Source: Nanobdellota archaeon (lineage in GTDB: Archaea > Nanobdellota > Nanobdellia > Woesearchaeales > GW2011-AR4). From it: a DNA stretch of 39,473 nucleotides. Positions 11,760 to 39,473 of the stretch are shown piece after piece. The notes beneath the pieces were generated by a model. It was not told where the DNA came from, made no database searches, and saw only the letters and a program-made list of their open reading frames with translations. Both the position numbers and the translations under genes were made by a program. Position 1 is the stretch's first letter; every line of letters begins with the position of its first letter. The DNA is taken from NCBI GenBank assembly GCA_038046385.1, contig JBBSWH010000003.1:1-39473 (forward strand). The letters are read 5' to 3'.

Positions 11760-11891
11760 CGCGCCGGGGAGGATTCGAATTCGGGGTGATAGAGAGTTAC
11801 TCAATCACGCCCCCGGCCTAAAGGTATCTCCATCAGCGTAAACGCTTATAGTTAGGAACCTTTCGCTCTATCCAAGCTGAGCTACCGGCGC
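11760..11891 (-). tRNA. tRNA-Arg(CCT) with two introns: 37/38 (11826-11852, 27 nt) and 53/54 (11780-11809, 30 nt)
   Basis: Removing both introns gives GCGCCGG TA GCTC AGCTTGGATA GAGC G AAAGG TTCCTAA CCTTT AGGCC GGGGG TTCGAAT CCTCC CCGGCGC G, a complete cloverleaf. Both junctions have bulge-helix geometry. Confidence 0.93.
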
Positions 11892-26315: not shown

Positions 26316-26440
26316 GCCTTCGTAGCTCAGCGGTAGAGCGTCGCTTTCGTAAGCATGAATTTTTGGTCAAGCTTTTTAGCTTGCCTAAAAAGGTTGTTTG
26401 AAACAAGCGAAGGTCAGGGGTTCAAATCCCTTCGAAGGCT
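26316..26440 (+). tRNA. tRNA-Thr(CGT) with a 53-nt intron at 37/38 (26352-26404)
   Basis: GCCTTCG TA GCTC AGCGGTA GAGC G TCGCT TTCGTA|A AGCGA AGGTC AGGGG TTCAAAT CCCTT CGAAGGC T; central helix TTCG/TGAA with 3-nt bulges. Confidence 0.94.
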
Positions 26441-26461: not shown

Positions 26462-26535
26462 CTTCGTAGAATAGTTCTTTTGGTCAAGCTTTTCTTGTAT
26501 AAGAAAAGGTTGGTGGTAATCCCTTCGAAGGCTTT
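26462..26535 (+). repeat. Degenerate partial duplicate of tRNA-Thr (5' 8-mer, intron hairpin, 3' 18-mer)
   Basis: CTTCGTAG matches 26318-26325, TTTTGGTCAAGCTTTT matches 26361-26376, and AATCCCTTCGAAGGCTTT matches 26425-26442. Confidence 0.8.
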
Positions 26536-37652: not shown

Positions 37653-39170
37653 TTATTTCAGCTCGCTGAATTCTGTAACTGTTTCTTTGCTTTTGTTTTT
37701 TATATTTTCTTCAAAGTTCGGAATTCTTATAGGTGTTACAAACCTTGCAAAATTGCTTGTTATAAGCGCGTCTCCGATGTCAAGAGAAGCAATTGTCCTG
37801 TCGTCCTCGCTTAAATCTTGGGCAGCGCTTTCAATTATCGCCTGCCTTTCTGGCTTCATTTCTATTCCAAGAATTATTTTTGTGTTGATGTTTGCAAGAA
37901 TCTCTCTTGGGATTAATGATGGCAACTGCGTTATTGCGACAATTCCGACTTTGAATTTGCGTCCTTCTCTTGCAATTGTTGAAAATATATTCGGGCCGGC
38001 TTCAAGCACATCTTTTCCAAGAACTCTCGGAGCTTCTTCAAGAACAATTGATATTACAGGTTTTGAATCCAAAACCCCGTTCATCTTGTGATATTTGTAC
38101 CTGTTGAATGCTTCGTTTGCAATCAAGCTCCCTATCAAAAGTTCAACTGCTCCTGAAAAATTGGAAGTATCAACTATGACTGTTTTGCTGTCTTCAAGGT
38201 GCTTGCAGATGTCGCTTACCACTGCTGCGCCTGCATTCAGCTGGAATGCGCCGTTGCAGTGCAATTGAGAGTTTGAAAATTCAAGGTCGAGAAGATACAA
38301 TAATCTTCTTTTTACAACAGACATTGTGTCGTCTTTGAAAACCCTGCCGATGCTCAGGTCTCTTTCAAGAATTATTGCTTCTATCCATTTTTCTCCGTAT
38401 TCTTTGTAATATAAATTCAGACACTGCCTTTGCGCGTCGCTGAAATCAACAACACCGTCAAAATGATGCGGCTTGATTATGCTCAAGTTCATCTTTAATG
38501 TGTTTGCGCCTGCAGGCGGGTTTTTTGGAGTGTAATAAACTATTTTTTTTGACGGATGGTCTTTTAATCCGAATCTGTTTCTCCCGTAATATTCATCATG
38601 CGGATCAAGAACAAGAATGCCGCAGTAATCAGGCGCTGCAGAGTTCCACAACAAGTTTGAAACCAAAACACTTTTTCCTCTTCCCGTGGTCCCTGCAATA
38701 AGAATGTGATGTGAGAATATTTTTTCACCGTCAAGATAAATCGGAACATCAAGCATTTTTGAGCCGGATCTTAAATTTCCTAAAAATAACGGGTTTTTTG
38801 GCGTTGTCAAAAATGATAAATCATTTTTTGTTATTTCCCTGACTTCTGAAAAGATTTTTGGCAGGGACTTGCTCATGAATGCTTTCTTGTCTTTGATTAT
38901 TGCAAGGCTTTTCAGCATTGCAAGCATGTAATTTCTTAAATTCGCATCAAAAAGCTCGAAATCTGTGTTTTCCTCTAATTTCATTCCGGAAATCATTTCA
39001 AGATTTTGCTGTGATATCTGGCTTCCGTAAACTAAGTCATAAGCTTGGAGAAGAATCTTGCCTTCATCAGAATCTGCTATTAATAATTCCCCTATTTCGA
39101 TGTTTTCATTGGATTTCTGCCTTGCTACAATGCGCCCGAATTCGCCTGAGATAACCTGACCTTTTACCAC
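37653..39170 (-). CDS. herA: HerA/FtsK-family (DUF87) ATPase
   Basis: N-terminal HAS-barrel-like region, [35 protein letters not shown] and ITQLPS. Confidence 0.9.
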
Positions 39171-39259
39171 AATTCTGGAGAAGTTATGGGATTATATAAA
39201 GATTTAGATAAGTCCCTATGAGTAACTTTTATAAACCGCCCTTTTAATCTAACCATTAC

Positions 39260-39388
39260 GGGTCAGTAGCTCAGCTTGGATAGAGCGACAGACATCATGT
39301 GTCGAACCTTCTATCTTTGCTGGCAGTAAGCTGAGAAGCCTTTAAAGCTTCGCTTAATAGGTCGGGGGTTCGAATCCTCCCTGACCCG
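39260..39388 (+). tRNA. tRNA-Arg(TCT) with three introns: 30/31 (39292-39306), 37/38 (39314-39328), 42/43 (39334-39357)
   Basis: Splicing gives GGGTCAG TA GCTC AGCTTGGATA GAGC G ACAGC CTTCTAA GCTGT AGGTC GGGGG TTCGAAT CCTCC CTGACCC G with a perfect ACAGC/GCTGT stem. TTTATAAA upstream, T-tract downstream. Confidence 0.92.
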
Positions 39389-39426
39389 TTTTTTATTATA
39401 GAATGATAAGGATTCAATTTTTTAAT

Positions 39427-39473
39427 GCGAGCGTAGCGAGCACTGGGGTTTAATTCCCCGACCTTCAGGTCGT
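39427..39473. repeat. Palindromic element downstream of tRNA-Arg(TCT), truncated by the window end
   Basis: GCGAGC-gta-GCGAGC (hairpin with tandem G.A), GGGG..CCCC and CGACCT-tc-AGGTCG. Confidence 0.5.

Follow-up and report, generated by a model that had tools for sequence, protein, structure and literature searches.

How can a transfer RNA (tRNA) gene be interrupted three times within its 17-nucleotide (nt) anticodon arm and still encode an intact tRNA? The question is raised by a locus close to one end of contig JBBSWH010000003.1 (Nanobdellota archaeon, assembly GCA_038046385.1), whose positions 1 to 39,473 were analysed as a whole and are referred to below as the window. The host is a Woesearchaeota (DPANN) metagenome-assembled genome (MAG) from groundwater, which comprises 1.28 Mb in 19 contigs with approximately 39% G+C. 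The locus (39260-39388, plus strand) encodes tRNA-Arg(UCU) and is interrupted by three bulge-helix-bulge (BHB) introns of 15, 15 and 24 nt, which leave two internal micro-exons of 7 and 5 nt. This layout had been proposed from the sequence in an original prediction, and both the perfect cloverleaf of the spliced product and the orthologous genes agree with it. Taken as a whole, the best explanation, which is very probably correct, is that the locus is the sole apparent tRNA-Arg(UCU) gene of its host and that its three BHB introns are removed stepwise by EndA and the ligase RtcB.

The Rfam tRNA model RF00005 recognizes the locus over model positions 1-71 with 37.7 bits (cut-off 29), and its alignment handles 69 nt of the anticodon region as a single insertion. 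Excision of 39292-39306 (intron 1, 15 nt), 39314-39328 (intron 2, 15 nt) and 39334-39357 (intron 3, 24 nt) leaves exons of 32, 7, 5 and 31 nt, and the resulting 75-nt product is called by ARAGORN as a tRNA-Arg(tct) cloverleaf with all stems paired. The spliced molecule has a 7-nt anticodon loop, T33, a purine at position 37 and the anticodon TCT; A20 and C35 are candidate arginine identity elements. The introns interrupt tRNA positions 30/31, 37/38 (the canonical site) and 42/43, all within the anticodon arm, and were delimited by their junction motifs and by orthologs, with folding as additional support for intron 3. Exon 1 (39260-39291), placed by the Rfam alignment and the splice solution, contains the 5' strand of the acceptor stem, the D arm, G26 and positions 27-30 of the anticodon stem. 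Exon 2 (39307-39313), which follows from the splice solution and from orthologs without intron 2, comprises position 31, the anticodon TCT (34-36) and A37. Exon 3 (39329-39333; AGCTG), likewise derived from the splice solution, provides positions 38-42 and runs unbroken into TAGGTC in orthologs without intron 3. Exon 4 (39358-39388), again placed by the Rfam alignment and the splice solution, supplies position 43, the variable loop, the T arm, the 3' strand of the acceptor stem and the discriminator G, after which CCA is not encoded.

The flanks, read from the sequence on the same strand, contain candidate transcription signals. A TATA-box-like element (TTTTATAAA, 39227-39235, plus strand) is centred approximately 29 nt upstream of the gene and may serve as its promoter, and a TTTATAAA-type box occurs at a similar distance upstream in most of the orthologous loci displayed. 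Directly 3' of the discriminator, a T-run (TTTTTT, 39389-39394, plus strand) is the likely transcription stop; T-rich tails are found behind most orthologs.

For each intron, a central helix, bulges and at least one flanking helix were found, in the case of intron 2 only with 3/4 central-helix pairs, and scripts recovered all three predicted junction motifs letter for letter. Intron 1 (CGAC-AG|A..GTCG-AA|C, where bars mark the cuts) has a central helix CGAC/GTCG with 4/4 pairs, a 3' bulge AA|C and an outer helix of 3 base pairs (bp), GAG/CTT, that borrows the 3' strand of the D stem. Intron 3 (AAGC-TG|A..GCTT-AA|T) combines a central helix AAGC/GCTT, also with 4/4 pairs, with two 3-nt bulges and a 5-bp inner helix, GAAGC/GCTTC, and its motif is present in the unconstrained minimum-energy fold. 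Intron 2 (CTTC-TA|T..GCAG-TA|A) has a relaxed motif: its central helix CTTC/GCAG is weak, with 3/4 pairs, and its outer helix is the 5-bp anticodon stem itself once introns 1 and 3 are gone. When the anticodon arm containing only intron 2 was folded for 12 orthologs, no common canonical motif appeared, and the placement of intron 2 at 37/38 is the one favoured on comparative grounds.

Alternative layouts were enumerated by an exhaustive search that allowed at most three deleted segments of at least 10 nt each, demanded at least 3/4 central-helix pairs and required a cloverleaf. The real sequence yielded 571 relaxed layouts, of which only three are free of stem mismatches, and the reported layout ranks top. 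All three have introns 1 and 3 in common and differ in intron 2 alone, which lies at 37/38, at 35/36 or at 39310-39324, the last of these producing the anticodon AGT. The two competing placements, which are the only others without a stem mismatch, are very improbable. Although the AGT layout has a central helix (CAGC/GCTG) with 4/4 pairs, it has neither an inner nor an outer helix, and the gene body resembles Arg(TCT) genes throughout the family; moreover, orthologs lacking intron 2 contain the TCT loop as an unbroken stretch. It was rejected for the missing flanking helix and the contiguous TCT loop of these orthologs. The 35/36 variant is inseparable from 37/38 by sequence and has a lower score; cuts at 35/36 or 36/37 would give the same mature RNA because TA repeats at both ends of the intron.

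The exon-intron layout with intron 2 at 37/38 was compared with the same gene elsewhere in the family. BLAST of the gene against 70 family genomes gave a match in 64, and 50 loci were examined. A complete gene was parsed in 43/50 loci, comprising 42 Arg(TCT) genes and one Arg(CCT) gene (L094); the unparsed loci were L090, L093, L119, L122, L128, L130 and L131. Among the 42 Arg(TCT) genes, two contain no intron, 19 contain one, 18 contain two and three contain three; a single-intron gene (L098) comes from an unpublished genome (G056), without which the single-intron count is 18/41. By position, the 64 introns are distributed over 30/31 (6), 37/38 (23), 42/43 (7), approximately 28/29 (11) and the D loop (17), the boundaries of the D-loop introns being imprecise. 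Intron 1 is present in 6/42 orthologs, intron 2 in 23/42 and intron 3 in 7/42, always with identical junctions, and each of the three is precisely absent at its predicted junction in the remaining orthologs. Introns 1 and 2 occur without intron 3 in L087, L088 and L092, and introns 2 and 3 without intron 1 in L082, L084, L086 and L089. All three are also found in L083 (G035) and L085 (G026), from two other species of the window's genus. The gene is intron-free in L123 (G031, also from the window's genus), where the predicted anticodon arm is contiguous letter for letter, and in L120 (G068), whose arm has one different stem pair. As far as sequence comparison can establish it, this evidence is decisive for the gene and its introns.

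The interiors of the introns vary freely. In particular, the interior of intron 1 ranges from 7 to 35 nt with unrelated sequences. The central helices and the AA|C bulge, on the other hand, are conserved; judged by this pattern, selection acts on the splice motifs only. The third pair of the intron 1 central helix, A-T in this gene, is reversed to T-A in the Arg(CCT) paralog L094, and the fifth pair of the intron 3 inner helix is C-G, T-A or T-G. In the acceptor stem, pair 4-69 has changed on both sides, being T-A in this gene but C-G in most orthologs. In the central helix of intron 2, only the two outer C-G pairs are kept, in 16/17 genes compared (16 Arg(TCT) genes, among which L016 and L087 are identical, and L094).

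The host appears to depend on this gene. AGA is its commonest Arg codon, with 4571/9768 (46.8%) in a crude set of 591 open reading frames of at least 250 amino acids. A second TCT gene was not present among the approximately 31 tRNA-like genes of a rough inventory, and BLAST of either gene half returned no second copy in the genome, as expected if no other Arg(TCT) gene accompanies this one. The sequence itself recurs in an independent study, a contig of which (run X5) covers 39262-39432 with zero differences. It had also been claimed that standard tools miss or miscall the gene, for example as a CTA suppressor. The first part of this claim applies to ARAGORN, which misses the gene in default mode and in intron mode reports a tRNA-Phe(aaa) with one 49-nt intron; the CTA call arises only for a partly spliced form lacking introns 1 and 2.

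The three splice motifs overlap. The outer helix of intron 1 pairs positions 22-24 with 32-34, and positions 32-34 are also part of the central helix of intron 2 (32-35). The anticodon stem, which is the outer helix of intron 2, has its 5' strand split by intron 1, and its 3' strand, positions 39-42, forms the central helix and bulge of intron 3. Competition of the motifs for micro-exon bases had been predicted, and the overlaps at 32-34 and 39-42 bear it out. Because the motifs share these bases, they cannot all form at once, and splicing would therefore proceed in rounds of cutting and joining.

The accessibility of each motif was estimated as the energetic cost of its core (forced central helix and both bulges compared with the full ensemble) in every splicing context. 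The intron 1 core costs +3.0 to +3.4 kcal/mol whatever the context. That of intron 3 costs +1.6 kcal/mol in the primary transcript or after removal of intron 1, and its cost reaches +10.1 to +10.4 kcal/mol once intron 2 is gone. The intron 2 core costs +12.2 to +17.1 kcal/mol, with the minimum of +12.2 when both other introns have been removed. A single near-optimal fold of the primary transcript contains the motifs of intron 1 and intron 3 together, and the central helix, both bulges and the 5-bp inner helix of intron 3 already form in that transcript. Orthologs point in the same direction: the intron 3 central helix has 4/4 pairs in 6/7 orthologs with intron 2 present versus 4/7 after its removal, and in L086 and L089 the first pair of this helix is a G-C pair that uses the last G of intron 2 and becomes an A-C mismatch when intron 2 is removed. 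On balance, this modelling suggests that introns 1 and 3 are removed first and the canonical intron 2 last, with the reservation that a thermodynamic ranking leaves out tertiary folding and proteins, which weakens the case.

The original prediction had reversed part of this order, making intron 3 wait for intron 2. That intron 2 leaves the same precursor before intron 3 seems unlikely. The argument for it is that the outer helix of intron 3 (TCT/AGG) needs exons 2 and 3 to be joined, and this helix does indeed form only after removal of intron 2; a required order does not follow, since the core of intron 3 costs +1.6 kcal/mol before that step and about +10 kcal/mol after it, which makes it approximately 8.5-8.8 kcal/mol less accessible. 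With introns 1 and 2 removed, a motif-constrained fold gives intron 3 two outer helices, one of them of 4 bp, but with a 5-bp inner helix the intron does not need an outer one. The outer helix is possible in 7/7 orthologs with intron 3 (T-A, C-G, T-G), yet it is uninformative because it is wholly exonic and never varies. Moreover, the helix pair of L086 and L089 is lost once the last G of intron 2 is gone, and the motif of intron 2 is the weakest in every context and is best once intron 3 has been removed.

With introns 1 and 3 leaving first, the following pathway may be envisaged. We infer that the precursor is transcribed, cleaved by the EndA of this genome and ligated. A 129-nt precursor would be transcribed from the TATA-box promoter and would end at the T-run. 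A single alpha-type EndA, probably a homotetramer, would cut the three introns, and RtcB would join the exons. Introns 1 and 3, with perfect 4-bp central helices that are able to coexist in the primary transcript, would be processed first; their removal would complete the anticodon stem, which is the outer helix needed by the weak motif of intron 2, so that intron 2 would leave last. Proceeding in this stepwise manner would also prevent release of the 5-nt exon as a free pentamer.

A further feature of the precursor concerns its D arm. The minimum-energy fold of the precursor does not contain the D arm; instead, 39269-39285 pairs with exon 2 and intron 2 (39309-39324), through GGAUAGAG with UUCUAUCU and CAGC with GCUG. 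By eye, intron 2 of most orthologs keeps a complement of D-arm positions 11-16 in differing letters (GCTGAG, CTGGG, TTGGG).

The genome contains a single EndA gene (L111:1186-1788, where L111 is G000:C6:70931-74191), which encodes 200 amino acids with PF02778 and PF01974; no EndA paralog was found in the genome by tblastn. The closest solved structures are the alpha subunit of the N. equitans enzyme (3iey_A, E 3.6e-35) and the M. jannaschii homotetramer (1a79, E 1.2e-32). Residues 34-200 align with 1a79 without any gap of more than one residue, and the catalytic Y, H and K are aligned. Compared with the N. equitans protein, six residues fewer are found just before the catalytic His, the place at which the positively charged N. 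equitans-specific loop is located according to PMC3488258. None of the broad-specificity loops (CSL/L1, ASL/L2 and NEQ-type/L3, the last placed after PMC3488258) was found. By its sequence, EndA is presumably a plain alpha-type enzyme that assembles as a homotetramer. The segment YDRGVKPGEDHARW is invariant in seven EndAs of the family, and the family enzymes carry a variable Lys/Glu-rich N-terminal tail of approximately 15-45 amino acids, which M. jannaschii EndA lacks. EndA matches were obtained in 54/70 family genomes, with exactly one gene in 53/54, and in 18/19 high-quality genomes. Despite its loop-less EndA, the genome is rich in non-canonical and multiple tRNA introns, as judged from the rough inventory.

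An RtcB ligase is also present in the genome. Its match (G000:C19:24104-25448, minus strand) is split, with profile positions 26-426 and 1-25 in separate frames approximately 30 nt apart; a frameshift, an assembly error or a small insertion could produce such a pattern. The EndA gene lies head to head, with a slight overlap, with a gene for an RNase Z-like metallo-beta-lactamase (L111:216-1325, minus strand, PF13691), so that two tRNA-processing enzymes adjoin each other.

Several observations weigh against a functional gene spliced in this way. The first is that layouts that work are easily obtained: dinucleotide shuffles of the 71-nt insert region gave a mismatch-free cloverleaf under the relaxed rules in 136/200 cases, and a workable splice layout is therefore no proof in itself. 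A motif-quality score combining central and flanking helices separates the real gene (12.33) from the shuffles, 0/300 of which reached it; because the score was devised with the real gene already known, it counts only as supporting evidence. Second, the intron 2 motif is poor, with one central-helix mismatch here and one to two in close orthologs, and it was never predicted by simple folding. Third, EndA has no insertion when compared with the strict-specificity enzyme of M. jannaschii and is also without the N. equitans loop around the catalytic His, so that cutting of relaxed motifs is not what published rules would predict. Fourth, the genome is 85% complete, so that the missing part could contain another Arg(UCU) gene or another EndA subunit; the presence of one EndA in 53/54 matched family genomes weighs against the latter. 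Finally, RNA runs are absent (0) from the 17 public runs listed as holding this DNA.

The incomplete genome, the degenerate motif of intron 2 and the lack of RNA runs among those listed would also suit a decaying pseudogene that has accumulated insertions while another gene supplies tRNA-Arg(UCU). Such decay is extremely unlikely in view of the state of the locus: every stem is perfect after splicing, the promoter box and the T-run are intact, and acceptor pair 4-69 has changed on both sides, so that pairing is kept. Furthermore, the same three introns occur in two other species with conserved splice motifs and diverged interiors, and AGA is the commonest Arg codon in a genome where no other TCT gene was found. 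The pseudogene reading was rejected on the perfect spliced stems, the intact flanking signals and the conserved introns.

Multi-intron tRNAs and forced sequential splicing have already been published, and no new kind of system is established here. Archaeal tRNA genes are described as containing as many as three introns, in some cases spaced so tightly that the motif of one intron can form only after its neighbour has been excised, and tRNAscan-SE 2.0 therefore searches iteratively (PMC8450103). Multi-intron tRNAs have been listed for Crenarchaeota, N. equitans, M. kandleri, Korarchaeum and ARMAN-1/2, with the maximum of three in Thermoproteales (PMC4033280). The original prediction regarded three-intron tRNAs as rare and best described in Thermoproteales; this does not fit the present host, a DPANN archaeon in whose family multi-intron tRNAs are common. 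As portrayed in PMC4033280 and PMC8450103, the multi-intron genes of Thermoproteales (Sugahara et al. 2008) resemble the present one in carrying as many as three BHB introns, at the canonical site as well as at non-canonical ones, in the closely spaced introns that force sequential removal and in the fast gain of introns among related species. In contrast, the gene analysed here belongs to a DPANN host with a 1.3-Mb genome of approximately 39% G+C, and the 17-nt anticodon arm alone accommodates all three introns, with exons of 7 and 5 nt between them. Moreover, the Thermoproteales EndA is described as a heterotetramer with a Crenarchaea-specific loop, whereas a single plain alpha-type EndA is predicted here.

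Within DPANN, alpha4-type EndAs have been reported to go with more disrupted tRNA genes, in a survey that included one Woesearchaeota genome (PMC5829648). The co-occurrence of alpha4-type EndA with multiple and non-canonical introns was tied there to the 'L3' loop (PMC5829648, Kaneta et al. 2018), and it was suggested by these authors that incomplete tRNA sets point to disrupted genes that had escaped identification (PMC5829648). A literature search on Woesearchaeota or DPANN combined with tRNA introns returned only PMC5829648 on the subject. The DPANN genes of that survey come from the same superphylum as the window, but their EndAs are described with the 'L3' loop, whereas the EndA analysed here does not have the six-residue N. 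equitans loop. ARMAN-2 (Micrarchaeota) likewise is a DPANN host with relaxed motifs at non-canonical sites, as presented in PMC3488258; its EndA is a three-unit fused epsilon2 enzyme with an ASL loop shown to confer broad specificity, and neither was found here (PMC3488258). In Asgard archaea, tRNA genes are reported to be interrupted even more heavily (PMC11291895; 2026 preprint). The heavily interrupted tRNA sets described for another superphylum share several properties with the present family: most genes are interrupted, more than half of them contain multiple introns, gains occur at BHB motifs, repeatedly and at many positions, and many genes are missed by standard annotation. In contrast to that system, one orthologous gene is followed here across one family, with 0-3 introns in five position classes.

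The intron layouts of this gene differ even between close relatives, and in one genus the same gene contains 0, 1, 2 or 3 introns. The Arg(CCT) gene L094 (G005, approximately 1495-1595), from the same genus, contains introns at 30/31 and 37/38 like Arg(TCT); either these introns predate the divergence of the two isoacceptors, or copying from one paralog to the other took place. In metagenome run X7, a contig is identical to the window over 39100-39290 (191 nt, comprising the upstream flank and the 5' exon) and then diverges; beyond 39290 it contains one short 28/29-type intron in an otherwise uninterrupted anticodon arm. In a second contig of run X7, the anticodon arm is intron-free. The first contig may represent an allele that differs in its intron layout at the strain level; alternatively, the assembly may have joined two sequences across the 31-nt 5' exon that they share. 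A search with exact stretches of upstream flank and 5' exon in JGI metagenome contigs and GTDB genome contigs gave 0 matches for the alternative allele. No further copy of intron 1 (up to two mismatches) or intron 3 (up to four mismatches) was found in the genome, and the near matches of intron 2, with 1-2 mismatches over 15 nt, are probably coincidental. It is conceivable, though doubtful, that in this family intron layouts change as fast as strains diverge and that a plain alpha4-type EndA processes them without any of the loops regarded as a requirement for cutting relaxed or non-canonical motifs.

Other tRNA genes of the host are interrupted as well. Rfam sees only 20 tRNAs in the whole genome, many of them 110-170 nt long. 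The whole-genome tRNA solver is crude, in that it misses or gives wrong layouts for class II tRNAs and for genes interrupted in the T arm or acceptor stem, and its intron counts for other genes are therefore tentative. Its best layouts contain three introns each for Ala(CGC) (C1:35448-35594), Phe(GAA) (C19:26225-26395), Trp(CCA) (C9:18473-18585) and Ala(GGC) (C11:129712-129835; all in G000), and the host genome probably holds several more three-intron tRNA genes. In the window itself, a tRNA-Arg(CCT) gene (11760-11891, minus strand) has a 27-nt intron at 37/38 (11826-11852) and a 30-nt intron in the T arm at 53/54 (11780-11809); its spliced form of 75 nt is called Arg(cct) by ARAGORN, and the unspliced gene reaches only 30.8 bits with Rfam. 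A tRNA-Thr(CGT) gene (26316-26440, plus strand) contains a 53-nt canonical intron (26352-26404) and is miscalled as Phe(gaa) by ARAGORN in intron mode. The hairpin motif of this Thr(CGT) intron, TTTTGGTCAAGCTTTT, recurs at approximately ten further places in the genome, including a tRNA-Ala intron (C1, approximately 35545) and 26478-26493, just downstream of the Thr(CGT) gene. The Arg(TCT) gene of G032 (L126) contains a stretch similar to TTTTGGTCAAGCTTTT in its D-loop intron. The TTTTGGTCAAGCTTTT hairpin may be a small mobile repeat that seeds introns.

The surroundings of the Arg(UCU) gene are less constant than the gene itself. The neighbouring HerA-like gene has relatives, with at most 82% identity, in MAGs labelled Candidatus Woesearchaeota, Nanoarchaeota or Nanoarchaeia. 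Among 80 related HerA-linked loci, an Arg(TCT) gene is present within the flanks in L016 only, at a different place, and the position of the tRNA gene beside the HerA-like gene is therefore not conserved. At the contig end (39412-39473), the last 60 nt show up to 117-fold summed contig depth in metagenome runs, versus approximately 5-fold in the flank. This stretch resembles a tRNA T arm with the 3' strand of the acceptor stem and is present also on contig C13; it is a multi-copy repeat that probably broke the assembly at this point.

AGA is the commonest Arg codon of this archaeon, yet simple tools miss or miscall the only decoder found for it. Because such genes are missed by simple tools, the tRNA sets of DPANN MAGs look incomplete when they are not. 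The locus provides a comparatively verified case in which three overlapping splice motifs would force stepwise splicing around micro-exons of 7 and 5 nt, and it adds to the signs that a loop-less alpha-type EndA can handle relaxed motifs. With 0-3 introns at five position classes in one gene, the family offers material for studying the gain and loss of archaeal tRNA introns. The loop-less EndA and the very fast turnover of intron layouts are two features that specialists may find of interest. If turnover on the strain scale and processing by a loop-less EndA both prove true, the relationship generally accepted between EndA architecture and intron load would have to be revised, and the family would offer a natural setting in which to observe introns as they are gained and lost.

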